A stretch of 41,055 nucleotides of DNA from a virus (taxonomy: Duplodnaviria; Heunggongvirae; Uroviricota; Caudoviricetes). Positions within the stretch are counted from its first letter, which is position 1; every line of letters starts with the position of its first letter. Positions 4,768 to 41,055 of the stretch are shown here, one piece after another. The DNA lies in IMG/VR virus record IMGVR_UViG_2529293142_000021, positions 1 to 41,055 of that record, one strand, 5' to 3'. The position numbers and the translations under genes are program-made. The notes beneath the pieces are model-generated. The model was given only the letters and a program-made list of their open reading frames with translations. It made no database searches and had not been told where the DNA came from.

Positions 4768-5181
4768 ATGACGGGTTTAGATAGAGCTATAAAAATTATC
4801 GGCAACCAGTGCCGCCTGGCTCTGGCGCTAAACGTGAGCGCCATGTCGGTAAACGACTGGGTGCATAAATACAAGGGCCGCGTTCCATCAGGGCGGGTCC
4901 AGGGAATTTTCCAAATTACCGGCGTTACTCCGCACGAGCTGCGCCCGGATTTGTACCCGAATCCAACGGACGGCCTGACCAGCTCGGCAGAGGCAGCACC
5001 GGTACGTCAGGGGGTGAGTGAGCAGGTGGGCGAATCAGTGCGCGAGTGTGCCGAGGCTCATTGCGCAGTGCTCACAAACGCGCCACCCGAGATTCAGGAG
5101 CGCGAGGCCCTCCAGGCAATAGCAGCGCTGGTCCCGTTTGTGCCTGGTCACCGGGTGTTAATCCTGCCGCGTGAGCAATAA
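4768..5181 (+). CDS. Cro-like HTH regulator with C-terminal extension
   Basis: Start taken at MTGLDRAIKIIGNQCRLALALNVSAMSVNDWV, which has a good RBS; the ORF track starts earlier at 4708. First rightward gene of the switch. Confidence 0.6.
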   Translation: MTGLDRAIKIIGNQCRLALALNVSAMSVNDWVHKYKGRVPSGRVQGIFQITGVTPHELRPDLYPNPTDGLTSSAEAAPVRQGVSEQVGESVRECAEAHCAVLTNAPPEIQEREALQAIAALVPFVPGHRVLILPREQ

Positions 5182-6873: not shown

Positions 6874-7091
6874 GCGCCGCGAATTTACCCGCCTGCCCGG
6901 AGTGCGGAAACAGACCTGAATACGCATTCAAAATTGACTACCAGGGCTGGCACCGTGGCGGGCTGAAATGCCCCTACGACCACCACCGCGTATCACTCGA
7001 CAGCCCGGCGGGTACGCGCAAAAACGCAGAGGAAAGGCTGGCCCCACAGTGGTGTGAGCTGGTCGCAAAAATACAGGGAGAGACAGAATGA
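6870..7091 (+). CDS. small Cys-rich zinc-ribbon protein
   Basis: 73 aa with CPECG...CPYDHH...WC; start overlaps the previous stop. Confidence 0.4.
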   Translation: MSAANLPACPECGNRPEYAFKIDYQGWHRGGLKCPYDHHRVSLDSPAGTRKNAEERLAPQWCELVAKIQGETE

Positions 7092-8407
7092 GCGACGCAG
7101 CGATGATCATTGCGCCAACAGATATTCGCGAGATGGTGCGTGAGGTAGAGACGGCTTATTACCGGTATCTCGAAGAATTCCGCATCCCGGACGATCACAA
7201 AATCGTTGTGAATTTCTCCGCAGGAAAAGACAGCACTACAACAGCGACCATTGCGCATCACCTGTTCGGCGACCGTGTTAAAAATGTTATGGCGGATACT
7301 GATAACGAGCATGAATTAACTGTCGATTTTGCTCGTAATGTCCATCATCAAATCGGTTGTAAACCTGTTCAAATTGTTAAGCGCATTTACACCGAGGCGG
7401 AGTTTGAGCGCCGTCGCCAGTCTCTCAAAGACCGCTGGCCTAAACGCCAGGCAATTAGAATGGGGGCATATCGAGGTGTAATCATGCCATCGTTGGCGCG
7501 GGCAGATACCAAATTTGGTCAGGCATGGTTACGCACCGCTGAGCGCTGGGGGATTGAGTTTGAGACACCTCTGGAGGCCGCTATTTCAGTGATGCATCCG
7601 AGCGGAAACAGCTTCCTGGATGCTGCGTTATTGCATGGCAAATTTCCAATGCTGAGAGACCGTTTTTGTACTGACGAACTGAAAATTCAGATCGCTTTTG
7701 ACGCTGCGATAAAACCACTTTTGGATGATGGAGAGGTCGTCGTTCAGTGGTCTGGCGTTCGCGCAGATGAGTCTGACAAGCGCGCCGGTTATTCGAGATT
7801 TGCGCGTGACGAGCGTGATCCAGATTTCCTCTATAACTTCCTGCCTATTCATAAATGGACAGCGGCAGATGTTTTTGCGTTGCATAAATATTTCGGTATT
7901 AAACCAAATCCTCTGTACGTGCAGGGTGCGTCCCGTGTCGGTTGCATGAACTGCGTGTTGAGCACCAAAGAGGAAATTTCTGAGACGGCTGCACGCTGGC
8001 CTGAGCATATCGAAAAACACCATGCATGGGAGAAGAAAGTACGCCTGGCATCACGCTGGGTGCATTGGATGAGTGTCGGAACGGAAAGTCAGGCATGGAT
8101 GCGGTCACAGTTGGGATTTCGCATCGAAGCCTGGATGGGAGAGGATGAATTTACCGGAGAGGAAATTATGCGGAGCAGGAAATATCCAATAAACCTCGGT
8201 ACGGATATCAAACTATACGGCTTAGAGCCAGACATTCAGCGCATTGAGTGGTCAGGATTCTACGGGCCGCGCGGGAATATGGGTGCGCCGTCAGCGATTG
8301 ATGTTGTTGAGTGGGCGAAAACCGGGCGCGGCGGAAAGGTTTATGATCTGGTGAAGGCCAGCATGAACACTGCCGTGTGCTCTTCACGTTACGGATTATG
8401 CGAATAG
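7088..8407 (+). CDS. PAPS reductase-like PP-loop protein
   Basis: 439-aa ORF with PP-loop motif FSAGKDS near the N-terminus, as in the PAPS reductase / DndC-like family. Confidence 0.75.
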   Translation: MSDAAMIIAPTDIREMVREVETAYYRYLEEFRIPDDHKIVVNFSAGKDSTTTATIAHHLFGDRVKNVMADTDNEHELTVDFARNVHHQIGCKPVQIVKRIYTEAEFERRRQSLKDRWPKRQAIRMGAYRGVIMPSLARADTKFGQAWLRTAERWGIEFETPLEAAISVMHPSGNSFLDAALLHGKFPMLRDRFCTDELKIQIAFDAAIKPLLDDGEVVVQWSGVRADESDKRAGYSRFARDERDPDFLYNFLPIHKWTAADVFALHKYFGIKPNPLYVQGASRVGCMNCVLSTKEEISETAARWPEHIEKHHAWEKKVRLASRWVHWMSVGTESQAWMRSQLGFRIEAWMGEDEFTGEEIMRSRKYPINLGTDIKLYGLEPDIQRIEWSGFYGPRGNMGAPSAIDVVEWAKTGRGGKVYDLVKASMNTAVCSSRYGLCE

Positions 8408-12300: not shown

Positions 12301-12659
12301 TGGCAAAATATTCAATCACCCCACTGGGTAAACCCCGCATGACCCGTGCTGACAAATGGAAACAGCGCCCGCCGGTGCTGCGTTACCGCGTGTTTTGTGA
12401 TGAGGTCCGCTTAAGCGGCATTACGCTGCCCGAGAACGGCGCACACGTTGTATTTGTTATGCCTATGCCAGCGAGCTGGAGCCAGAAAAAACGCGCCAGC
12501 ATGAACGGTGCGGCCCACCAGCAAAAACCGGATATTGATAACCTCACTAAATCGCTGTTAGACGCCCTGTTTGATGACGATTCTCATATTTGGGATGTCC
12601 GGGCGTCGAAAATATGGGGCTATGAGGGCGCGATCGTGGTGCAGGAAGGTGCGGCATGA
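12300..12659 (+). CDS. rusA: Holliday junction resolvase RusA-like
   Basis: 119 aa; acidic motif PDIDNLTKSLLDALFDD characteristic of RusA family; typical position upstream of Q. Confidence 0.8.
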   Translation: MAKYSITPLGKPRMTRADKWKQRPPVLRYRVFCDEVRLSGITLPENGAHVVFVMPMPASWSQKKRASMNGAAHQQKPDIDNLTKSLLDALFDDDSHIWDVRASKIWGYEGAIVVQEGAA

Positions 12660-14563
12660 AATACGGTTCCGTTTGCAGCGGTATTGAGGCCGCGAGTGTG
12701 GCGTGGGAGTCCCTCGGCTGGCAGCCTGCATGGTTCGCAGAGATTGAGCCGTTCCCCGCCGCTGTGCTGGCGCATCACTGGCCGCAGGTCAAAAACCTTG
12801 GCGATATGACGAAAATCGCCGCCGGTGTCCTCGCTGATCAAATCGAGGCACCAGACGTGCTGGTGGGCGGCACTCCCTGCCAGGCATTCAGCGTTGCCGG
12901 ATTGCGCAATGGACTGGCCGACGAACGCGGACAATTGACCCTTTCTTACGTGGAATTAGCAAATGCAATCGATGACAAGCGCCGCCAGCGCGGTGAACGG
13001 GAATCAATCATCGTCTGGGAAAATGTCCCCGGCGTGCTCAACAGCAAAGACAACGCGTTCGGATGTTTTCTGGCTGGGCTTGCCGGAGAAAGCAGTGCGT
13101 TGCAGCCACCAGGGGGAAAATGGACGCTCGCAGGTTGTGTGCGTGGACCCGCGCGAAATATTGCCTGGCGAGTGCTCGACGCTCAATTTTTCGGAGTGGC
13201 ACAACGACGCCGCCGTGTGTTCGTTATCGCAAGTGCTAGAGACGATATCGATCCCGCAAAAATACTTTTTGAGTCCGACGGCGTGCGCCGGGATACTCCG
13301 CCGCGCAGAGAGTCGCAAACGGCAGTTGCCGCTCTTACTGCGCACGGCGTTGGAGCGTGTGGCGCAGACGACAACCAGGCGCAGGCAGGACATCTAATCC
13401 CTGAGATCAGCGCATATCGCATGACCGCATTCGGCGAGTATGCTGATGATGAAACTGCATCGACAGTTAAAGCGAGAGATTACAAAGATGCGACCGATCT
13501 GGCAGTTATGACGGTCCATGGCACACAGGATCCAGACGTTAACATCGAATTAGCGCACACGCTGGGGCGGAATAATGGGCAGGAAAATGCCTGCATAGCA
13601 TTCAGCTATAAAGATCACGGCCAAGATGCAGGATATGAAATAGCGCCTACTTTGCGGGCGGGGAATTGCGATACAGGGCGGGGTAACAGCGGGCAACCGC
13701 CAGCGGTCGCCAAGGCAATGCTCGTACGCCGTCTCACTCCGCGTGAGTGTGAGCGCCTCCAGGGATTCCCGGACGACCACACAAAAATACCCTGGCGCAA
13801 CAAACTGACTGAGGACTGTCCGGACGGGGCGCGATACAAAGCGATCGGCAATAGCATGGCAGTGCCGGTGATGCGCTGGATCGGCGAGCAAATTAAACGA
13901 GCAACAGCAACGCAGGAAATTATCTGTAATCCCTACGTCGCGGCGGTTGATAAATTACGCGCGCAGAATGAACACTATTTGCGCGAAGTTGGCGATCAGT
14001 GGCGCACTCCTGATCTGCTGTTTTGGGGTATTAATGCAATATTTGGCCCACTGGTCCTCGATCTGTTTACTGACGGCGATAATTCAAAATGTCCGAATTA
14101 CTACACGGCCGAACAAAACGCGCTAACGCAAGACTGGTCCGCGCGACTCGCGGATCTGGGCGGCGCTGCGTTCGCTAATCCGCCGTACAGTCGATCGCAG
14201 TATCACGACGGACAGGCGATCACCGGCATGGCCCACATCATGAGCCACGCCCGCTCAATGCGTGACGCTGGTGGGCGTTTTGTTTTCCTGCTGAAAGCCG
14301 CGCCATCGGAAACCTGGTGGCCGGAGGACGCGGATCACGTAACGTTTATTCGCGGTCGTGTCGGTTTTGATTTGCCAGCCTGGTTTAATCCTGCTGATGA
14401 AAAACAGGCACCCTCCAGCGCAAATTTTGCGGCGGCAATTGTTGTGCTGGATAAAAACTGGCGCGGGGGCCGGTTCGGATATATCCACCGCACAGAGCTG
14501 GAAGCGAAAGGCCGCGCCGCCCTGGCGCTGGCACGGTATGCAGTCAATGAGGCCATATTTTGA
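12656..14563 (+). CDS. fused C5-cytosine and N6-adenine DNA methyltransferase
   Basis: N-terminal half has C5-MTase motifs: GSVCSGIEAAS (I), GGTPCQAFSVAG (IV), ENVPG (VI), QRRRRVF (VIII), GNSMAVPV (X). C-terminal half has a phage Dam-like region with the NPPY catalytic motif (FANPPYSRS). No cognate endonuclease nearby. Confidence 0.85.
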   Translation: MKYGSVCSGIEAASVAWESLGWQPAWFAEIEPFPAAVLAHHWPQVKNLGDMTKIAAGVLADQIEAPDVLVGGTPCQAFSVAGLRNGLADERGQLTLSYVELANAIDDKRRQRGERESIIVWENVPGVLNSKDNAFGCFLAGLAGESSALQPPGGKWTLAGCVRGPARNIAWRVLDAQFFGVAQRRRRVFVIASARDDIDPAKILFESDGVRRDTPPRRESQTAVAALTAHGVGACGADDNQAQAGHLIPEISAYRMTAFGEYADDETASTVKARDYKDATDLAVMTVHGTQDPDVNIELAHTLGRNNGQENACIAFSYKDHGQDAGYEIAPTLRAGNCDTGRGNSGQPPAVAKAMLVRRLTPRECERLQGFPDDHTKIPWRNKLTEDCPDGARYKAIGNSMAVPVMRWIGEQIKRATATQEIICNPYVAAVDKLRAQNEHYLREVGDQWRTPDLLFWGINAIFGPLVLDLFTDGDNSKCPNYYTAEQNALTQDWSARLADLGGAAFANPPYSRSQYHDGQAITGMAHIMSHARSMRDAGGRFVFLLKAAPSETWWPEDADHVTFIRGRVGFDLPAWFNPADEKQAPSSANFAAAIVVLDKNWRGGRFGYIHRTELEAKGRAALALARYAVNEAIF

Positions 14564-30565: not shown

Positions 30566-31143
30566 ATGCAAAATTTAAAATCATTTAAGCTTGTAAAACC
30601 TAAAACGAAATTACTTAAACTTAGCGAGTCTGACGGACAAAATATTTTATATCTTCAGTCCGAAGACGGCATGGATTGGTATGAATGCCAGTCACTGTAT
30701 CGCGATGACACAGTAAAAATAATGTACGACAAAGAAAACATTATTCGATCAGTTGTTGATCGCCCGGTCCCGGAGCGAGGAAATACCTATTCTGTGAGCA
30801 TGTTTTTCCCGATTGATATGAGTGTTGCGGAGGTTGAGTTGAGCACCTATCCTGCTGAGCTAACTCTCGACGGATCGTGGAAATTTGTTGACGGTGATGT
30901 ATATCAAGATGAGCAAATTGTAAATGAGCGTATTTACAAAGAAAACTCCAAAAAATTAATGAATTAGTCCGAGAGGCTCAGTCAGCAATTCTAAATTTAC
31001 AAACAGCCATAGAGATTGATATGTCATCAGATGGTGATGAGGAAAAGCTAATAGAATGGCGACGCTACCTGTGCGAGCTGAATAAAATAACAGCCACGGA
31101 TCTAAGTCAGTCCCCACTTAACACTCCTTTACGACCAGCATAA
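30566..31143 (+). CDS. tail fiber assembly chaperone, apparent frameshift
   Basis: ORF 30566-30967 ends just after an A6 run (30950-30955); the conserved Tfa-like C-terminus (...KLIEWRRYLCELNKI...) continues in another frame to the stop at 31141-31143. Confidence 0.6.
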
Positions 31144-31155
31144 ATAGGGTACCTA

Positions 31156-32667
31156 ATGAGCACTAATTTTTTACACGGTATTCGCACACTCGAATACGAC
31201 GACGGCACAAAAGAGATCAACACGGTCGATATTTCAGTTATCGGGATTGTTGGTACTGCACCGGATTCTGCCGGGGCAGCAGACGCGGAATTAATAACCG
31301 GGAGCGAGATTCTAAAAAACCGAGTTAAATTTACTGCAACAAATCAGGGTGCGCGCGGTAATTCATGGAGCGTGGAAATTATCGCGAGCGAGACAGAGGG
31401 TGGAAATTCACTGTGGCGGGATATGCCCGACGGCAGTCGGAGATTAACTATATATGTTTCTGCACCCTCTGGACTACACAGCTACACACCGGACGAAATT
31501 GTTCAGAACGTCACGATCCCAAACCCTCCCTCTGATCAGATATTTTTAACTGTCACCGCGGTGGACACAGGGTCGACCGCAGGAGCTGTGACTGCCTCAC
31601 CGTTGCAATATTTAAGCGGCGGCAGTGATGAGGCATACCCAATTAATACCCCCGCACTGATTGCTGGAAGTCCAAAAAAAGCCGCTTTATTAGGTGAACG
31701 CGGCACGTTGCCGAAAGATATTGCCGATATTTTCAATCAGGACAACGCCTTGCTTGTTGTTGTGCGAGTAAAAGATGACAAAGACGCAACAAAACAACAG
31801 CAAAATATTATCGACGGTGTCAAACAACTGGAAAAATCGAAACAGTTAACAGGAGTCACGCCGCGTATTATTATTGCACCAGATTTTAGCGCGATTGATA
31901 CAGTTGCTGCCCAGGTTGAGGCGACGGCAACTAAATTGCGTGGCGTGGGCTATATCGACTCACCGACAGCCGCAACGGCGGAGGATGTAGTGAGACGCCG
32001 CCAGAGCTATGGCGCTCGCGTTGAAATCCTGCGACCGCGCATTTTCACTACCAGCGATATAACCGGCGCATCGCGCGCATATTCGGCGACGGCAGCTGGG
32101 TTACGTGCGCGTATTGATAACGACGGTAAACACGGTTTCTGGTGGAGTAAATCAAATCAAAACATTTACGGCGTAACTGGCGTCGAACAGATTGATGATT
32201 TTATTATCGGCGAAACCAATTGCACGGCTAATCTGTTAAACGCCGAACAGGTCAGCACAATTATTCGTTACGACGGGTTCAGACACTGGGGTAACTATCT
32301 GTGCAGCCTGGATCCGCAGTGGTCGTTTGAATGCGTTCGTCGAACAGCTGACGTAATTGAGGATTCGATCGCCATCGCAATGATGAATGATTTCATCGAC
32401 CGTCCGATCGATGTTCATCTCGGCGGGGACATCATCGAAACAATTAATGCGTATATTCGCAAACTATACGAAATGGGCGCTATTAACGGTGGTCGAGCGT
32501 GGCTTGATAGTGAGCTGAATACGAAAGAAAGTTTCGCCGCCGGGAAAATTTATATTAACGTTGAATTTGCACCCAAATCACCCGCACAAACCATCACGAT
32601 TACGTACCGTATTAATAACGATTACACCGTCGATGAATTTTCTTCATTGCTGAAACAGGCCGCATAA
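31156..32667 (+). CDS. contractile tail sheath protein
   Basis: 503-aa ORF immediately upstream of the tube gene, P2 FI-like. Confidence 0.8.
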   Translation: MSTNFLHGIRTLEYDDGTKEINTVDISVIGIVGTAPDSAGAADAELITGSEILKNRVKFTATNQGARGNSWSVEIIASETEGGNSLWRDMPDGSRRLTIYVSAPSGLHSYTPDEIVQNVTIPNPPSDQIFLTVTAVDTGSTAGAVTASPLQYLSGGSDEAYPINTPALIAGSPKKAALLGERGTLPKDIADIFNQDNALLVVVRVKDDKDATKQQQNIIDGVKQLEKSKQLTGVTPRIIIAPDFSAIDTVAAQVEATATKLRGVGYIDSPTAATAEDVVRRRQSYGARVEILRPRIFTTSDITGASRAYSATAAGLRARIDNDGKHGFWWSKSNQNIYGVTGVEQIDDFIIGETNCTANLLNAEQVSTIIRYDGFRHWGNYLCSLDPQWSFECVRRTADVIEDSIAIAMMNDFIDRPIDVHLGGDIIETINAYIRKLYEMGAINGGRAWLDSELNTKESFAAGKIYINVEFAPKSPAQTITITYRINNDYTVDEFSSLLKQAA

Positions 32668-32681
32668 CATAGGGGTTAAAT

Positions 32682-33194
32682 ATGTCCAGAGGTAGCGTTT
32701 ATCGCGCGTTTACACTGTGGGTACAGGGTGAGCGTATTTGCAATTGCACCGAATATACCCCGGTTGATATGAAATTAATTGAGGATGATTTTAAAACCGG
32801 TGCGATGGATCAGGGCATTACACTCGACGGCGGCATGGAAAAAATGGCCGCTAGTTTTAAAGTCACCGGGTCAGATACTGATGTTATGGCTTATTTTGGG
32901 ATTATCCCCGGTGCAAAAACTCGTTTCGAAATTCGCGCCGCATATACTGATAACTACGGCATTAGTTTTGAACGCATTGATATATACGAAGGGTTGATTA
33001 CTGCAATTACCGATGACGCGATGGGGACTGACTCAAAAGCCGCAGTCGGTAGCACTGTTAATATCGCCCCGAGTTATTATAAGCGCACTCAAAATAGTAA
33101 ATTAATTTATGAATTGCATCCAGCAAAACTGAAACGCGTTATTAATGGCGTTGATGTTCTTGCGGGTGTTGCAAGTATTCTCCACGTATATTAA
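32682..33194 (+). CDS. tail tube protein
   Basis: 170-aa ORF following the sheath gene. Confidence 0.75.
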   Translation: MSRGSVYRAFTLWVQGERICNCTEYTPVDMKLIEDDFKTGAMDQGITLDGGMEKMAASFKVTGSDTDVMAYFGIIPGAKTRFEIRAAYTDNYGISFERIDIYEGLITAITDDAMGTDSKAAVGSTVNIAPSYYKRTQNSKLIYELHPAKLKRVINGVDVLAGVASILHVY

Positions 33195-33207
33195 TCAGGA
33201 AATAAAA

Positions 33208-33492
33208 ATGGAATCATTATTAGACAGCATGACGGTAACATTATCGCGTCCGTTCGAAATTAACGGCGTAACCGTTGAAACAATCACAGTGCGCGAGCCT
33301 AAGCTCCGCGATCGCATCTTGTTTAGCAAAGATAAGGGCGATGCAGAGGAAAAAACTGCGCGTATGCTGGCACGGCTGGCTAATCTTAACATTGAGGATA
33401 TTTACTCCCTTCCTTCCTGTGATTATATGAAAATGGAGGAAGCATTTAACGAACTGGTAAAGATCCCGACCGACCGGAAGCAGATATTATAA
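33208..33492 (+). CDS. tail assembly chaperone, gpE-like
   Basis: Start at MESLLDS with AGGA RBS; small gene between tube and tape-measure genes. Confidence 0.5.
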   Translation: MESLLDSMTVTLSRPFEINGVTVETITVREPKLRDRILFSKDKGDAEEKTARMLARLANLNIEDIYSLPSCDYMKMEEAFNELVKIPTDRKQIL

Positions 33493-33597
33493 TCCTGCTC
33501 CCGTATATAGCTAAAAAGCTGGCTATTCCTCCCGATACGCAACTAAATATGCCGTATCGGGTTTTTAATTTCTACGTAACAGAGCTAATGAAAAAAG

Positions 33598-35225
33598 ATG
33601 GCTGCTACACAGGAATTTAAAACAAAAGTTGTATTTGGGGGCCGCATAGACCCCTCTTTTAAGCGCAGCGCCGACGAACTGGACGGCGCTATAAAGCAGA
33701 CGGGTAACACCGTTTCAACGTTAACACGTAAACAGGAGAAATTAAAAGACCAGATCAAAAAAACCGAGCTTGCGGGCAAAAGTACTAAAAGTCTGGTTCA
33801 CGAATATCAAAAAGTCGGGCGTGAAATTAATATCGTTACGAAAGATCTTGAGCAATTAAATAAACAGTTAGCAAAAAAACAGCGAATTGAAAACATTGGC
33901 AGCAAAATAAAGGGCGCTGCGAAATGGGGCGGTAGAGCTGCGCTCGGCACCGCAAAAGCCGTCGGCAGCGGCGTTAAATGGGGCGCGCTTGGCGGGATTG
34001 GGCTAATTGGTGCCGCCGGAGCTGGTGCCGCCGCAATGAATGCTGAAACCGCCGAAAAATTAGGGCTGGCCCGGTCCTACGGTGTAGGAATCGAAAAATA
34101 TGCGGCGTGGGATAACGTCGGTAAAATGGCTGGCCTCAACGGTGAAAACGTTGGTGATTTATCCGAGGAATTAACAAATAAATTGGGTGAGGTCGGCAAC
34201 GAAAAAAACCTTAACCCGATGCTGTTCCAGATCGGTCTTACCAAAAAAAGGATGCAGAGCTGGGATCGGGAAAAACAATTTAACGAGGTAATGAGTCGTC
34301 TTTCGAAAATGAAAGACGAAAAACAGGCCGCAAGTCTCGCCGACCAATTAATGGGCGGTGAGGCAAATAAAATAATGACGTATATGAGGATTACTGGCAA
34401 AACATGGGAGCAGACCATGGAAGACGCCAAAAAATCCAATTTATTAACGCAGGAGGGCGCGGAGGGAGCCGCCCGCGCGCATTTCTCATTAACTAATTTA
34501 TGGGGTTCTATTTCCTCGGGATTTGCCGACACGCTCGGGAAAATTGGTGGGAAACTGGCCCCGACATTTGACTCGATGCGCGAGGGATTTACATCATGGT
34601 TTAAAGACAATCAAGGGACTATTGTTAATACTGTAAAAGAGTGGGTGAAACCGGAGAACATGAAAAAGCTGTGGGATGGCATAGTTAATTTCGGCGAGGG
34701 CTGCGTAAAATTCGGTAAAATAATATGGGTGGTGGTAAAAAAATTAGAGTGGTTAATTCCGGACGAAAAGACCGAAGAAGAAGAAAAAGTATATAAAGAA
34801 GAATACGCAAAAGCGTATCAAGAATTCATGGACTCGGGCGGAAAATATTCACCGAACGCTGGCCTGGCTGCTGATAATGTTGCACAAGCTAAAGCAAAAG
34901 AAGCCGTCGATAATATGCGTCATCCGGAGCGTAAAAAAATGCCGAGGCGATCATGTCGCTGGCTAATCCATTTGTTGAGGCACAAAAAGCGGCGGCGGCC
35001 CCTGATTCACTGCAAAATGCAACTATAAATATGGATGCGCTAAAACAAGCCGTGGCGCAACCAGCGCCGCAACAAAATAATAAAATTGAGGTTAATATTA
35101 TGGCGGCTGGTGACCCTCAATCTATCCAGGCGGCGGCGGCGTCAGGGGTATTAGACGGAATAAGACAGGCCGCGCCATCTGGCGGTCGCGGATCAATGAT
35201 GGACAGACCAGTGGCGGCGGGGTAA
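33598..35225 (+). CDS. tail tape measure protein, apparent frameshift
   Basis: Coiled-coil N-terminus and Gly/Ala-rich segments typical of tape measure proteins; reading frame changes at an A7 run (34933-34939); split into 33598-35028 and 34953-35225. Confidence 0.7.
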
Positions 35226-35229
35226 ATAA

Positions 35230-35640
35230 ATGAACGACGCACAGGATATAATGCTCGGCCTGGGTGATTTTATTTTTGCTATATCAACAGTCGCCTACAA
35301 TAAATTACAGCGTAGTGATTCATGGCGCTGGGCTGAACAAACCAGATTCAGGAAAAATGACGCGTTGCAAATGACGGGCCGCCCGAACCCAACAATCACT
35401 ATAGACGGTAAAATAAATGCCTTATTTTTAGACGGTTGCGGGATTGGGTTATTATCAGATTTGCGCGCCCTGGGTAATGAGGGCAACCCCCAGCAGCTGG
35501 TGCTGGGGACTGGTAAAGTCATGGGCTATTGGGTTATTAAAGACCTGAATGAAACGCAAAATAGTTTCTTTATGGGCGGCACCCCAAAAACGCAGGATTT
35601 TACGTTAACCCTGCAATATTATGGCGCTTCATTAGACTGA
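35230..35640 (+). CDS. tail protein U-like
   Basis: 136-aa ORF after the tape measure gene, as P2 U. Confidence 0.7.
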   Translation: MNDAQDIMLGLGDFIFAISTVAYNKLQRSDSWRWAEQTRFRKNDALQMTGRPNPTITIDGKINALFLDGCGIGLLSDLRALGNEGNPQQLVLGTGKVMGYWVIKDLNETQNSFFMGGTPKTQDFTLTLQYYGASLD

Positions 35641-35861
35641 ATATCTTTTGGCTTTTTATCGCCGAAAGCGGCCCATAATATTAATATAATCCACATCAGG
35701 AATATCCAGCCAAAAAGAACATTTAATATTACTACCATGGTGCAGCTTTTATGCCCTCTCATTAACGCAATGATTAGCGGAATAACATATAAAATAATGG
35801 ACGCCAATGGGTTAGCCATGAGCCAGATATACAGGGCTACAATCCATGTGAAAATTTCCAT
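35619..35861 (-). CDS. small inner-membrane protein, Imm-like
   Basis: 80 aa from MEIFTWIVALYIWLMANPLASIILYVIPLIIALMRGHKSCTMVVILNVLFGWIFLMWIILILWAAFGDKK; two predicted TM helices; AT-rich; antisense to all surrounding tail genes. The resemblance to T4 Imm-type proteins is from memory. Confidence 0.5.
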   Translation of the reverse strand: MEIFTWIVALYIWLMANPLASIILYVIPLIIALMRGHKSCTMVVILNVLFGWIFLMWIILILWAAFGDKKPKDIQSNEAP

Positions 35862-35879
35862 ACTTGGAACCTCATTATT

Positions 35880-36095
35880 ATGACAATCACATATACGACG
35901 CGAGACGGAGATCGGCTCGATCAAATATGCCTCGCGGTTTACGGGCGAACCCGCGTTACTACAGAGACTGTTTTATATCAGGTTTCAAACTACGGCGTAA
36001 CAGATATGTGCGCTGTGTTCCCTGCCGGGCAGATCATCACATTGCCGGAAATAGAGCCTGAACCGATTAAAAAAGAAACTCAATTATGGGACTGA
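35880..36095 (+). CDS. tail protein X-like
   Basis: 71-aa ORF directly upstream of the gpD-like gene. Confidence 0.55.
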   Translation: MTITYTTRDGDRLDQICLAVYGRTRVTTETVLYQVSNYGVTDMCAVFPAGQIITLPEIEPEPIKKETQLWD

Positions 36096-36098
36096 TGA

Positions 36099-37142
36099 AT
36101 GGGTGATTACACTAACACTGGCGTTGAGGCGTGGAAGCCTAATTTTTACATAGCTGCGGATGATGTAAATATTACAGAAAAAATCAGAAAAGGGCTTATT
36201 AATATCACCCTTACCGACTACGGCGGATCGAGTAAACAAACCGACGAAATACGCGTCGCTATCGTATCAGAAACGCTGAAAATCCCCGCGCGCGGCGTAA
36301 AAATAACGCTGGGGCTGGGGTTCGGTAATCAGATTATTGATAAAGGCGTTTACGTCGTTGATGGTGCCAGCAGTGGTGGCGAACCGCGCGTTGTTGATTT
36401 CACCGCAAAAGCCGCCCCCATGAACGCTGCAAAAGGCGCGAAAACGGTACAGAGCAAAAAAACGCGGTCCTGGATTGATCAAACCGTGGGCGATATTGTC
36501 GCAAAAATTGCGAGCGACAACGGTCTGAATCCACGCGTTTCAACCCGGTTTGCAGATACAAAAATCGAGCATATCGACCAGATCGGCGAGTCTGATATGC
36601 ATTTTATGTCACGCCTGGCAACCCGGTTTGATGCGGTCAGTAAGCCCGCTGGCGGATACTGGATATTTTTACCGCGCGGTAAAGGTGAATCAGTCAGCGG
36701 CGCACCGCTGCAACACTATACGTTAAAACGCGCTGGTAACTCGAGCTGGGGTTACTCAAGAAACGGGCAGAGCGGTGACAGCGGCGGCGGCGGTGAAAAC
36801 CCCGAACCCACATATCTGATTAAATATCACGACACGGCGACCGGGCAGATCAAAGAACTGCGGACCGGCAGCGGCGGCGATCCGGTTATCGAGTGGCCCG
36901 CGGTCGAGCCGTCGCTCGACGCAGCAAAAGAAGCGGCACCAGGGCTGAAAGGCGGTGCCGCTAAAAAAGAATTTTCAATGACATACTCATGCCCGGCAAC
37001 GCTGGATTTAATCGCGCTGACGGCGGAATGCAAGGTAACGACAGAGGGTTTTGGCAGCGAGGAAGATCGGGAGTGGACGATTAACACGCTATCCCTGACG
37101 CTGGCTGAGAACGGTTTTTCTGTTCGTATATCTATGGAGTGA
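36099..37142 (+). CDS. tail protein D-like
   Basis: 347-aa ORF with Gly-rich loop, at the end of the tail operon. Confidence 0.75.
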   Translation: MGDYTNTGVEAWKPNFYIAADDVNITEKIRKGLINITLTDYGGSSKQTDEIRVAIVSETLKIPARGVKITLGLGFGNQIIDKGVYVVDGASSGGEPRVVDFTAKAAPMNAAKGAKTVQSKKTRSWIDQTVGDIVAKIASDNGLNPRVSTRFADTKIEHIDQIGESDMHFMSRLATRFDAVSKPAGGYWIFLPRGKGESVSGAPLQHYTLKRAGNSSWGYSRNGQSGDSGGGGENPEPTYLIKYHDTATGQIKELRTGSGGDPVIEWPAVEPSLDAAKEAAPGLKGGAAKKEFSMTYSCPATLDLIALTAECKVTTEGFGSEEDREWTINTLSLTLAENGFSVRISME

Positions 37143-38977
37143 TCGCAGTGGCAAAAATATCAGGGGTGTACGCAAACGGACTCGGCGAGCCGGTGCCGGG
37201 TATCAATTTAGTGTTAACGGCTCGCGCAACCAGTTCCGGCGTGATAATGACAACGACGGCAGCGCAGCAAACTGGCGCGGGCGGTGAGTACTGTTTTGAA
37301 CTCCAGCCGGGTGTTTACGTAGTCACCGCCAGTGGTGCGTATCTCGGCGTGATTACCGTTAACCCGGATAGCGTCGACGGCACGTTAAACGCGTATTTGA
37401 CAAATTTCAGCGCGGACGAAATGACGCCAGCGGCGCTGGCGGAGGTTCAGGAGCTCGTTGCCACAGCACAAGCCGCCGCCAGTGTTGCCAGCGGTGCCGC
37501 AACGGAAGCCAGGCAGAATGCCGCCGCCGCTGCTGCTGCTGCGCAGATTTCGACGGCAGCGGCAGGTAGCGCCCGATTTGAGAATTTTGACGAAATTATA
37601 AATATTAATACAACAGCAATGCTGGAGCTGGAAAAGCCGGAGGTGTTAGATCCGGATATTACTATAACTATCACAGAGACGATTAATTATGACTACGTTG
37701 GTCCGGTAAACGGATTTTGCGACGTTGCCAGCCCGCTTGAATATAAAATTCAAATGTACGCCTACACAACAGGCGAATATTTTAACGGCGAAACAAATTT
37801 AACGGCAGACGGTAAGTTTTATTTTAAGCGATCATGGGCCGGTGCAAAACAATTCAGGTTGGTGCGCATAGCAGATAGTAAATGGATCACTACGCTGGAA
37901 TATCCATTGTGTATTAGAAGCTACTGGATGCCCGATGATGCCGATCCTGCGGTCGTCAAAACAATGAAAGATCGTTGCTATACATATGATCAAGCGGTCG
38001 CCGCCATGGCATTAATGGTCCAGCAGCATGACGCGGTGGAACGCTACGTCGCCGGGTTATGCGCGCTGGTAGAAGACGCTGGCGGGGTTAAATTTTACGT
38101 TAACAGGCTATCAGCTCAATCGCACCGAGCTTATTACAGGATGGGTAACGTGGCCTGGGTTTTATATGCTCTCGCATTCTATCTGCATAAATTCCCCACT
38201 GGTGACCAGGTTGCTACTGTTCGTGAGAAAATAGCGGCTGGATGCACTTGGGTTGATACGTTCAGAGTTATCACCCCCGGAGATCCGCGCGAGGGGCTAT
38301 ATATGGGGGGGAGTGGTAAATTTTACGACGGCGGCACCGTTTTTGATCCGGACTATATAGCAACGTGGTGCGCACTTGAGCATAACGTTGATATTTATTT
38401 TCTGTTCGAACTACTGGGCAGAATATCGGGATTCGAGAGTTACAAAAGCAAGGCGGCAGATCTGGCCGCCGATATTATTGAAAAATTCTGGATTGAGAGC
38501 GAAGGGCGTTTTCGCCAAGGGGTGCACGAAGACGCCCCGGACAACGTTGCTGCGTTAGATCAATCGAGTTGGGGCGGGATTTTTGCTGCACACGTTGATC
38601 CTGACAAGGCCGTGAGGTGCAGGAAATACATGGAAAGATTTAGATACGGCACACAGGAATGCGCTGGATATACGCCATATGATCTTGACCAGGGGTATTC
38701 CACACAAAAACGCGGCGTGTGGTGCGAGGGGGTGGGTGGTGTCGCGCTATTTGAGCGCCTGCTCGGTAATGAGGAACGCGCAATTGAATTGATAGCAGGA
38801 ATGACCCCACTCAGAAACAAATACGGGTATCGCGATTCATGCATGGATCCAACATACGACACGCTGCCAAATTGGCCCTCAACGACAAACACCGGCTGGA
38901 TGATTTTATGTTGTCAGCCCAGTGGTTTTTGGAACGTAAACGCCCCAAAACTAAGCATTGGGATCGTGAGATATTGA
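37139..38977 (+). CDS. tail fiber or tailspike with possible enzymatic C-terminal domain
   Basis: 612 aa; N-terminal about 100 aa resembles prophage tail-fibre N-terminal domains, then Ala-rich coiled segment, then a Trp/Tyr-rich helical C-terminal domain of about 400 aa. Confidence 0.55.
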   Translation: MIAVAKISGVYANGLGEPVPGINLVLTARATSSGVIMTTTAAQQTGAGGEYCFELQPGVYVVTASGAYLGVITVNPDSVDGTLNAYLTNFSADEMTPAALAEVQELVATAQAAASVASGAATEARQNAAAAAAAAQISTAAAGSARFENFDEIININTTAMLELEKPEVLDPDITITITETINYDYVGPVNGFCDVASPLEYKIQMYAYTTGEYFNGETNLTADGKFYFKRSWAGAKQFRLVRIADSKWITTLEYPLCIRSYWMPDDADPAVVKTMKDRCYTYDQAVAAMALMVQQHDAVERYVAGLCALVEDAGGVKFYVNRLSAQSHRAYYRMGNVAWVLYALAFYLHKFPTGDQVATVREKIAAGCTWVDTFRVITPGDPREGLYMGGSGKFYDGGTVFDPDYIATWCALEHNVDIYFLFELLGRISGFESYKSKAADLAADIIEKFWIESEGRFRQGVHEDAPDNVAALDQSSWGGIFAAHVDPDKAVRCRKYMERFRYGTQECAGYTPYDLDQGYSTQKRGVWCEGVGGVALFERLLGNEERAIELIAGMTPLRNKYGYRDSCMDPTYDTLPNWPSTTNTGWMILCCQPSGFWNVNAPKLSIGIVRY

Positions 38978-39040
38978 GGCAAATTGTCGGGAGTTTTTCC
39001 CCATTTATTCCCCAATAATTCCCCGTACAAAAACAGGCAT

Positions 39041-39067
39041 AAAAAAACCAGCCGTAACAGGCTGGTT
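39041..39067 (-). terminator. rho-independent terminator, minus strand
   Basis: Minus-strand ACCAGCC tgttac GGCTGGT followed by TTTTTTT, directly 3' of the tRNA-like fragment. Confidence 0.5.
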
Positions 39068-39080
39068 CTTAAGGTGTTTT

Positions 39081-39133
39081 TGGTCGGCACGAGAGGATTT
39101 GAACCTCCGACCCCCGACACCCCATGACGGTGC
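39081..39133 (-). other. tRNA 3'-half fragment (anticodon arm CAU, T-arm, acceptor 3' strand, CCA)
   Basis: Minus strand reads GCACC GTCATGG GGTGT ... GGAGG TTCAAAT CCTCT CGTGCCG A CCA. No complementary 5' acceptor strand or D-arm upstream, so not a complete tRNA. Confidence 0.4.
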
Positions 39134-39300
39134 GGGGCGTTCGGTGTTTGCATTTTGCAATTTTGCGAAAATGTAAATTAATTGTATTAATGCGTCATTA
39201 TCTGCAGATTTATAAGCCTGCCCCGATGAAAAAGCGGTTATCAAAACTCAAAAAGAGTTATCGCAAAACAAGCACTTGCAAACCATCTCAAATGATGTGA

Positions 39301-39332
39301 TTTATTAAAATATTTCCTGATATTTTAATAAA
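39301..39332. repeat. perfect 13-bp inverted repeat near the prophage-chromosome junction
   Basis: TTTATTAAAATAT ttcctg ATATTTTAATAAA, about 35 bp before the icd-homologous junction. Confidence 0.4.
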
Positions 39333-39364
39333 TATCAGTTAGTTGAAATTAAACCATCAAACTA

Positions 39365-39529
39365 CTGTTACGCCATATGGGCTGGACTGAAGCCGCAGAC
39401 CTGATTGTTAAAGGTATGGAAGGCGCAATCAATGCGAAGACCGTAACCTATGACTTCGAGCGTCTGATGGAAGGCGCTAAACTGCTGAAATGTTCAGAAT
39501 TTGGTGATGCGATCATCAAGAACATGTAA
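39365..39529 (+). pseudogene. icd: 3'-terminal fragment of isocitrate dehydrogenase gene (icdC-like)
   Basis: Translates to [53 protein letters not shown], which is the Icd C-terminus; no upstream icd sequence. Typical of e14-type integration at icd. Confidence 0.85.
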
Positions 39530-39552
39530 TCACTACATGTGTTTAATATTGC

Positions 39553-39584
39553 AACGGGCGTATAACACGCCCGTTGTTTTATTT
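39553..39584 (+). terminator. rho-independent terminator after the icd fragment
   Basis: AACGGGCG tataaca CGCCCGTT followed by a T-run. Confidence 0.6.
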
Positions 39585-39631
39585 ATGTAGGTATTATTAA
39601 TAGCATATCGAGCATATTTATATAAAACCCT

Positions 39632-39955
39632 TTACTTGAGCCCATATGGGCATATTTTTATAATGCAACTATTATGCAAACATTTATTTGTTATTTTTCT
39701 TTCTCCTGGAGGACACTCTTGACTGCTTTTGAGTAGACTCCATAAATCCTTGTTGAATGGTGCGATGTTATAAATAGTAATAGGATATTCTTTATCTTTA
39801 AGGATAATTCCAGATTTAACCGGTGTAAATATACTGCCAGGAGGGAGAAATATAGTAGATTGATACCAGATGATCATTTTCATATTACCCCATATGGCTG
39901 AAAAAGATATGCCGCATGAAGGTTGAATTATCGTGTCAATTACTATCCACTTCAT
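39632..39955 (-). CDS. iraM: IraM-like anti-adaptor protein
   Basis: 107-aa [21 protein letters not shown]...; matches my recollection of K-12 IraM, which lies just beyond icdC; low GC. Confidence 0.5.
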
Positions 39956-40412
39956 TTGTTATGTCTTATCCCACGGTATTTAATATAGTTCATTTGGATG
40001 TTCATTTCTTTATTTTGCATATGAGTATATTACCCCTTCAAAAAATAAATTAATTAAAACGATTGCTTATATAAAACAAAATTTAAAGCAAGGAATCTCA
40101 ATGGATGTTAAACAAAATGAGATTTAGTGAAAACAATAAATTATTCACTTCGTTTTAGATTTGTTTAGCTATAATGTTATACATTCAAATGACTGAACAT
40201 CCTGTAATTAAAACATAGCCTTTATGCTACTTTGTGCCAATTTGCTAAACATTATGGTTGCCTTTTTATATAACGATAATAATGAATATAAGCATGACAT
40301 GAGAATAAGGTTTCAATTTTTGAGTTATATAGGAAAGGTTTAACCTGTTCCTGGCTAAAATACATATAACTGGATGATGACTAAACCAAAACACATGTGC
40401 GTTAAGTATTGA

Positions 40413-40445
40413 AACGGGCGTATGGCACACCCGTTGTTTTTATAA
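40413..40445 (+). terminator. second copy of the icd-type terminator segment
   Basis: ACATGTGCGTTAAGTATTGAAACGGGCGTATGGCACACCCGTTGTTTTT is homologous to 39530-39584. Confidence 0.4.
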
Positions 40446-40650
40446 ATATATTAACCGTTATAAAATAACGTATAGAAAGTCAAGTGATCACATTTCAAAT
40501 ATCAATTTGATAGTATTGGCATGGTGATTATTTATGGGTAGCAATAAAAGGACAGTATTTATCATCCATAGGGATAGTCTCTGTACTTTTATTCCCATTA
40601 TGCTAATGCCTTACTGAATTATGAAGCATTTCTTAAGCATCCAACTTTAG

Positions 40651-41055
40651 CTAGATTAATGGTTTATTATTTTCTACATCTTCAATATATAAAAGCGTAT
40701 TATCAATGGCGTAGTAACTGCGTTTGTTATGATTAACATCAGTAACCCACCGGAAAACGCCCGCGCCTGCTAGTGTTGAACAGTATTCCCGAAATGTAGA
40801 TTTTCCGCAAATATGAAGCAATGCGGCCTCTTTTATTTTAGCAGGGTTCTTGGTCGTACTAACTTTTAACAGGTTCCTGGTTCCTCTTAATAACAAAACC
40901 GTGTCATCGTGAGTAATAATTCTGATGTTATCCGTAGCCAGATAATAAATGTAATGTGCAATACGGTGATGTTTTAATTCTGAATAAAACCAGGAGAAGT
41001 TTTGCTCTTTTCTCACTTGCTCAAACATCTTTTGAAAAACAACGACCTGATCCAT
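40651..41055 (-). CDS. ycgX: YcgX-like hypothetical protein
   Basis: 134-aa ORF whose start codon sits exactly at the window end; AT-rich; position after the iraM-like gene matches the K-12 order icdC-iraM-ycgX as I recall it. Confidence 0.45.
   Translation of the reverse strand: MDQVVVFQKMFEQVRKEQNFSWFYSELKHHRIAHYIYYLATDNIRIITHDDTVLLLRGTRNLLKVSTTKNPAKIKEAALLHICGKSTFREYCSTLAGAGVFRWVTDVNHNKRSYYAIDNTLLYIEDVENNKPLI

Follow-up and report, generated by a model that had tools for sequence, protein, structure and literature searches.

AT-rich lysogenic-conversion morons are found in the late regions of phages lambda (bor, lom) and P2 (Z/fun, tin, old). Among proteins that act on incoming DNA, T4 Imm is located in the cytoplasmic membrane and keeps the DNA of superinfecting phage from the cytoplasm (AF158101 annotation; PMC11436027; PMC6832632). 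HK97 gp15, a YebO-like protein, is a small inner-membrane exclusion protein that is expressed from the prophage and encoded by a moron in the tail operon, adjoining the tape-measure region, and it blocks genome entry in a manner that depends on the tail of the incoming phage (PMC3594210; PMC10883804). The literature describes the gp15 moron as carrying a promoter and a terminator of its own (PMC3594210). How T4 Imm works is still poorly understood, and a search of the literature found no experimental work on any member of the Pfam family PF14373 (Imm_superinfect) except T4 Imm, and none on prophage homologues of Imm.

Here we describe an imm-like gene (hereafter imm) that lies antisense within the tail operon of a temperate Escherichia coli prophage. 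The window, by which we mean the whole 41,055-nt stretch of DNA analyzed (IMG/VR record IMGVR_UViG_2529293142_000021), contains a lambda-type integrase, CI-like and Cro-like regulators, a lambda-family terminase and portal, a ClpP-capsid fusion and a P2-like contractile tail. A first-pass annotation, made from the letters of the DNA, had picked out an AT-rich 80-aa ORF on the minus strand between U-like and X/D-like tail genes of the plus strand, and had proposed that it is a superinfection-exclusion moron. The coordinates given for this ORF proved exact, and the profile matches of its neighbors bear out the placement (Table 1).

Table 1. Features at and around imm, in window coordinates
Feature	Position	Strand	Remarks
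gpU-like tail gene (left flank)	35230-35640	plus	PF06995, 111 bits; PHROG 76
Terminator-like hairpin and T-run	35615-35591	minus	directly after the imm stop, within the gpU coding sequence; weak
imm/gpU 3′ convergent overlap	35619-35640		22 nt
imm-like gene	35619-35861	minus	80 aa; PF14373 (Imm_superinfect); two hydrophobic segments
Inserted cassette (proposed moron), gpU stop to gpX start	35641-35879		homology break; GC 36.8%
Shine-Dalgarno GAGG	35873-35870	minus	8 nt upstream of the imm ATG; read from the sequence
gpX-like tail gene (right flank)	35880-36095	plus	PF05489, 54 bits; PHROG 46
gpD-like baseplate hub gene	36099-37142	plus	PF05954; PHROG 52
Best sigma-70-like match, TTTACA-16-TG-AAAAAT	36169-36142	minus	inside gpD, 280 nt from the imm ATG; weak

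The imm gene and its product

Sequence comparison confirms that the imm product (MEIFTWIVALYIWLMANPLASIILYVIPLIIALMRGHKSCTMVVILNVLFGWIFLMWIILILWAAFGDKKPKDIQSNEAP) is a full-length member of PF14373 and a true relative of T4 Imm. The search against Imm_superinfect-type profiles that had been suggested as a check returned PF14373 at 45.1 bits (gathering score 27.9), with residues 24-64 aligned to positions 1-41 of the 42-position profile, against which T4 Imm scores 58.2 bits. Both proteins belong to PHROG 1039 ('immunity to superinfection'), and BLASTP against T4 Imm (AF158101; protein AAD42582.1) gave 37% identity and 61% positives over 70 aa (E=2e-13). The motif that had been read as T4 Imm-like, LPxIIAxxRxH...N..FGW, is present as IPLIIALMRGH ... 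NVLFGW, and the longer family pattern, Y-x2-P-x3-A-x2-R-x-H ... N-x3-G-W-x4-W-x5-W, is found in full. An alignment of 130 family members has ten positions with a conservation of 80% or more, and the window protein matches every one of them (Y25, P28, A32, R35, H37, N47, G51, W52, W57 and W63), whereas T4 Imm departs from three of the ten, so that at these positions the window protein is the more canonical of the two.

The two hydrophobic helices of the first-pass annotation correspond, by hydropathy, to two long uncharged stretches at residues 3-34 and 39-67, which are separated by a basic RGHK, and the protein as a whole has a GRAVY of 1.15. AlphaFold2, run on a shallow alignment of nine sequences, returned one long helix at low confidence (pLDDT 68). 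The PDB contains no relative of the protein and no solved structure for the PF14373 family, there is no model for or match to it in NCBIfam or PADLOC, and a Pfam scan at E<=1 gave nothing besides PF14373.

The family assignment is correct and has already been made by public annotation pipelines: an identical protein, named 'superinfection immunity protein [Escherichia coli]' in NCBI and UniRef, is found on 108 contigs, and an 81%-identical variant annotated in RefSeq is found on more than 1000. A tblastn search with the protein against 50,697 phage genomes gave no match, for which the low-complexity filter is the likely cause given the hydrophobic query; a local tblastn without this filter recovers T4 imm. 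The family itself comprises 2490 clusters at 50% identity (profile search of 1.84 billion cluster representatives, E<=1e-3), and some members bear additional C-terminal domains. Because PF14373 is so large and includes these extended forms, exclusion need not be the function of all its members.

The gene is also supported by its conservation in related prophages. The first-pass annotation had allowed that the ORF might be a spurious call, in which case close relatives would lack it; the same ORF is instead intact, and in the same place, in E. coli prophages adjoining zinT (L008 and others; protein 81% identical) and in a prophage of Escherichia whittamii (L001; 86% identical). Compared with these two lineages, the minus frame has a dN of 0.09-0.11 with changes at 40-47 of about 50 synonymous sites, a regime comparable to that of gpU and gpX, and the other five frames over imm have either a much higher dN or stops. 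By this pattern of substitution, imm is a genuine gene under strong purifying selection, in its relatives as in the window.

Two further lines of reasoning were considered and set aside. A plus-strand read-through extension of gpU was rejected as coding, its dN being twice that of the minus frame. The gpU-phase plus frame contains no stop across the whole cassette in three lineages; only three positions in it could ever yield a stop, because the Imm protein is poor in Tyr, His and Gln. The occurrence of an intact imm beside broken tail genes was dropped as evidence of domestication, since the loci concerned had been retrieved by exact identity to the Imm protein and the comparison is thus subject to ascertainment bias.

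The start codon lies at 35861-35859 and the stop codon at 35621-35619 on the minus strand. In the L008 lineage PGAP picks an in-frame ATG further upstream, and since the counterpart of this ATG is out of frame in the window we place the start at 35861. Both this start codon and the upstream ATGAGG are kept in the L008 and L001 lineages. The imm ATG is only 18 nt from the gpX ATG, and in L008 a 16-nt gap (~4985-5003, corresponding to window positions 35862-35879) separates the two divergent starts. The L008 gap carries a palindrome, GAGGCCTC, which places a GAGG Shine-Dalgarno on both strands, as against the imm strand only in the window lineage.

At its other end, the last seven codons of imm (QSNEAP*) are antisense to the conserved C-terminus of gpU, YYGASLD*. 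The C-terminal tails of Imm variants P0007-P0009 differ beyond residue ~69, and for this reason the tail is probably dispensable. The AT-richness claimed for the gene was also found: its GC content is 37.4%, compared with 49.4% for the whole window and 45-52% for neighboring genes (gpU 45.5%, gpX 47.2%). This falls in the lowest 6% of 243-nt windows, that is, AT-rich but not extreme.

The gpU-gpX junction and the surrounding prophage

The claim that imm is a moron is supported by comparison with related phages. The order tape-measure/U/X/D is common to Alux-21 (E. coli), Mano (Achromobacter), Chris1 (Citrobacter) and yong2 (Hafnia), and in these four more distant phages nothing separates gpU from gpX, the two genes abutting or overlapping. 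In close relatives, whose gpU is ~85% identical, the slot is occupied either by imm or by an unrelated insert of ~173 bp with a 44-aa antisense ORF, and homology between the two alleles stops exactly at the gpU stop and restarts at the gpX start. The imm cassette thus probably represents a moron in the Juhala/Hendrix sense (PMC3594210), being extra DNA relative to related phages, with a deviant GC content and a swappable allele.

This tail module was found in 454 complete E. coli genomes, of which 18 carry imm and ~435 the other allele; in the latter, the 44-aa ORF is located within a truncated prophage remnant. The alternative cargo is represented by the minus-strand ORF at 3419-3553 of contig L026, with the product MRINFSSRRGISISASKKIPSGCFTFMFVVFFIIFILVKCSGSA; it is also found in L017-L022, L025 and L029, and is frameshifted in L024. 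Its product has a basic N-terminus and a single hydrophobic C-terminal segment, gave no Pfam or PHROG match and is unannotated in RefSeq, and the divergence among its copies is too small for a coding test. From these comparisons, it appears that alternative antisense small-protein genes use the U-X junction as a cargo slot.

The association of imm with this tail region extends to more diverged phages. IMG/VR contigs L034 and L035 encode an Imm homologue of 48-49% identity that is antisense between the tape-measure gene and gpX, in tail modules that share only 40-45% identity with the window in gpX and gpD. There is no gpU in L034 1410-6050 or L035 2636-6047, and the space between the tape-measure gene and gpX is taken up by the Imm homologue, which in L035 is interrupted by a premature stop at codon 5. 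A narrower-alignment pattern search of viral contigs gave three loci only. Because the homologue recurs in so diverged a module, the association between imm and the tail module is either old or recurrent. In L034, a duplicated gpX and a 5′ fragment of gpD flank an insert of ~0.8 kb encoding a 132-aa protein with a signal-peptide-like N-terminus, which suggests that this tail region contains a further site of insertion.

These observations raise the more speculative idea that the gpU-gpX junction of this prophage clade is a dedicated antisense slot for small membrane proteins, occupied by Imm in some lineages and by the 44-aa peptide in most others, with Imm as a long-term partner of the tail module and not a casual passenger; we regard this as doubtful. 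If it were true, Imm would be tuned to the adjoining injection apparatus (the tape-measure protein, gpU, gpX and gpD), its targets would be phages with related contractile tails, and the locus would offer a tractable temperate-phage system in which to work out how DNA is kept from crossing the inner membrane by proteins of the Imm type.

The prophage has several other features. Window positions 30621-40861 are 100% identical to draft E. coli contigs except for one missing A in a homopolymer, and megablast, which detects matches of ~85% identity or more, found no close match in 50,697 phages or 5,426 complete E. coli genomes. The missing A falls in the tape-measure gene, which is split into ORFs at 33598-35028 and 34953-35225 by a 1-nt deletion in an A-run at ~34933-34939; this run has seven A in the window and eight in the otherwise identical contig L002, where the tape-measure gene encodes 542 aa. 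The frameshift either stems from an error in sequencing or inactivates the gene, and in the latter case the prophage would be tail-defective. In the early region, a 635-aa fusion of a C-5 cytosine methyltransferase (PF00145) and an N-6 adenine methyltransferase (PF05869) is encoded at 12656-14563 (plus strand) and likely has an anti-restriction function. A 439-aa protein with a PAPS-reductase domain (PF01507), a domain type found in phage DNA-modification genes, is encoded at 7088-8407 (plus strand) in the replication/early region.

Although no long match to this region was found in 5,426 complete E. coli genomes, 121 of them have CRISPR spacers against the end of the tape-measure gene, gpU and gpX, and some arrays carry two such spacers. 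The matched sites lie at 35157-35196, 35212-35259, ~35324-35355, ~35523-35555, 35824-35859 and ~35884-35915, and in 95 genomes a spacer matches the first 12 codons of imm at 97-100% identity. E. coli CRISPR arrays have therefore taken up spacers from this prophage lineage on repeated occasions.

Signals for expression

A promoter for imm had been proposed in 35862-35880. This 18-nt gap holds only the Shine-Dalgarno sequence and cannot hold a promoter and, given the distance between the imm and gpX start codons, any imm promoter must lie in gpX or beyond. Within the 400 nt upstream (gpX/gpD), consensus and weight-matrix scans for sigma-70 promoters gave hits no more common than in shuffled sequences, and a conserved promoter was found neither across three lineages by weight matrix nor in the gpX genes of ten lineages by visual inspection. 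The best sigma-70-like match in the window (Table 1) is not kept in the 81% lineage, and in the more diverged L034 there was no plus-strand promoter match upstream of its imm copy.

The terminator-like hairpin that follows imm has a predicted energy of -16.5 kcal/mol and is not significant (z = -1.3), and an equivalent hairpin is absent from the L008 and L001 lineages. No plus-strand terminator was found in the cassette, so that nothing obvious would halt late transcription between gpU and gpX. Independent expression of imm as a lysogenic-conversion gene, which the first-pass annotation had drawn from its orientation and composition, is plausible; the orientation is compatible with it and does not constitute evidence for it.

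Proposed function, alternatives and known systems

We propose, by analogy with T4, that the Imm-like protein acts as T4 Imm does, blocking the entry of superinfecting DNA, but from a prophage, and we give this reading a probability of roughly 0.6. In the proposed scheme, a temperate E. coli prophage with a lambda-like head and a P2-like tail has gained a homologue of T4 Imm as a moron in antisense orientation at its gpU-gpX junction. Since it is transcribed against the late operon, imm could be made while the tail genes are silent, either in the lysogen or early after induction. Judged by its hydropathy, the 80-aa product would enter the cytoplasmic membrane as a helical hairpin, its two apolar segments of ~30 residues joined by the basic RGHK loop. 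There it would stop superinfecting DNA at the inner membrane, after adsorption and tail penetration, and the blocked DNA would be left in the periplasm. The most probable targets would be contractile-tailed phages. Counted against a DNA-entry block from a prophage is the fact that T4 Imm works in lytic infection.

The main rival to this proposal is that the protein is a true PF14373 membrane protein with a role other than blocking DNA entry, such as protecting the envelope of the lysogen or induced cell when tails adsorb to it and damage it (lysis from without, or 'secondary traumatisation'), or some other membrane function. We consider this unlikely, though it deserves more weight than the other alternatives. 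The huge size of the family and its varied C-terminal extensions speak for such a role; against it, the window protein fits the conserved positions better than T4 Imm does, consists of little more than the domain, at the same size as T4 Imm, and is encoded by a phage-borne gene in a moron slot.

Two minor alternatives concern the nature of the product and whether there is one. The product could be a small peptide that damages membranes, as a type I toxin or a holin-like protein would, and that is controlled in antisense through the gpU mRNA and serves in addiction or lysis timing. This would fit the small size and marked hydrophobicity of the protein as well as the 3′ overlap with gpU and the full antisense coverage by the late transcript, and Imm has been likened to a holin (PMC6832632). 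We nevertheless judge this improbable, because the protein matches a specific family whose characterized member is not toxic in this sense, because Rfam gave no type I antitoxin RNA or other RNA family near threshold in 35000-36500, and because type I toxins are usually shorter than 60 aa with one transmembrane helix, as against 80 aa and two long apolar segments here. More improbable still is that imm is non-functional, being either a decaying passenger in a defective prophage or a shadow of a gpU read-through product encoded on the plus strand. The frameshift in the tape-measure gene of the window, the plus frame that stays open across the cassette in three lineages and the premature stop in the L035 homologue could be taken to point this way, but the minus frame is under strong purifying selection and is the frame in which the Pfam match falls, and the openness of the plus frame, with its twofold higher dN, means little where only three positions could give a stop.

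The imm gene encodes a minimal, canonical homologue of T4 Imm in a temperate E. coli myovirus, beside the tape-measure and baseplate hub genes, and would lend itself to asking whether proteins of this type can act from a prophage and which injection machineries they act against. In practical terms, genes of this kind would bear on how susceptible E. coli lysogens are to therapeutic T-even-like phages. The apparent use of the U-X junction as a cargo slot, and the recurrence of Imm there in a much more diverged tail module, add a modest further interest.

Compared with known systems, the Imm-like protein is closest to T4 Imm, with which it shares PF14373, PHROG 1039 and a nearly equal length (80 and 83 aa). 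The layout of the two proteins is also alike: T4 Imm has uncharged stretches at 3-32 and 37-65 around RGSK, corresponding to 3-34 and 39-67 around RGHK, and in both the R-G-x-K loop and second stretch are followed by a short charged tail. The positions Y..P...A..R and W....W.....W are common to both, whereas H37, N47 and G51 of the Imm-like protein are S, S and N in T4 Imm. The genetic setting is different: in the virulent phage T4, imm is an early gene that is co-directional with its neighbors, whereas imm here belongs to a temperate prophage and is antisense in a late tail operon. The morons of temperate coliphages named above are, like imm, AT-rich accessory genes located among structural genes or beside them. 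Lambda bor, like imm, runs opposite to the late operon, although the proteins encoded by lambda bor and lom and by P2 Z/fun, tin and old are unrelated to Imm and have different mechanisms. HK97 gp15 resembles the proposed function and position of imm without any sequence relationship, PF14373 being the only family matched by the Imm-like protein. The gp15 moron is described as having a promoter of its own, whereas imm is antisense and our scans gave no identifiable promoter, and HK97 has a siphovirus tail, whereas the phage that carries imm has a contractile one.
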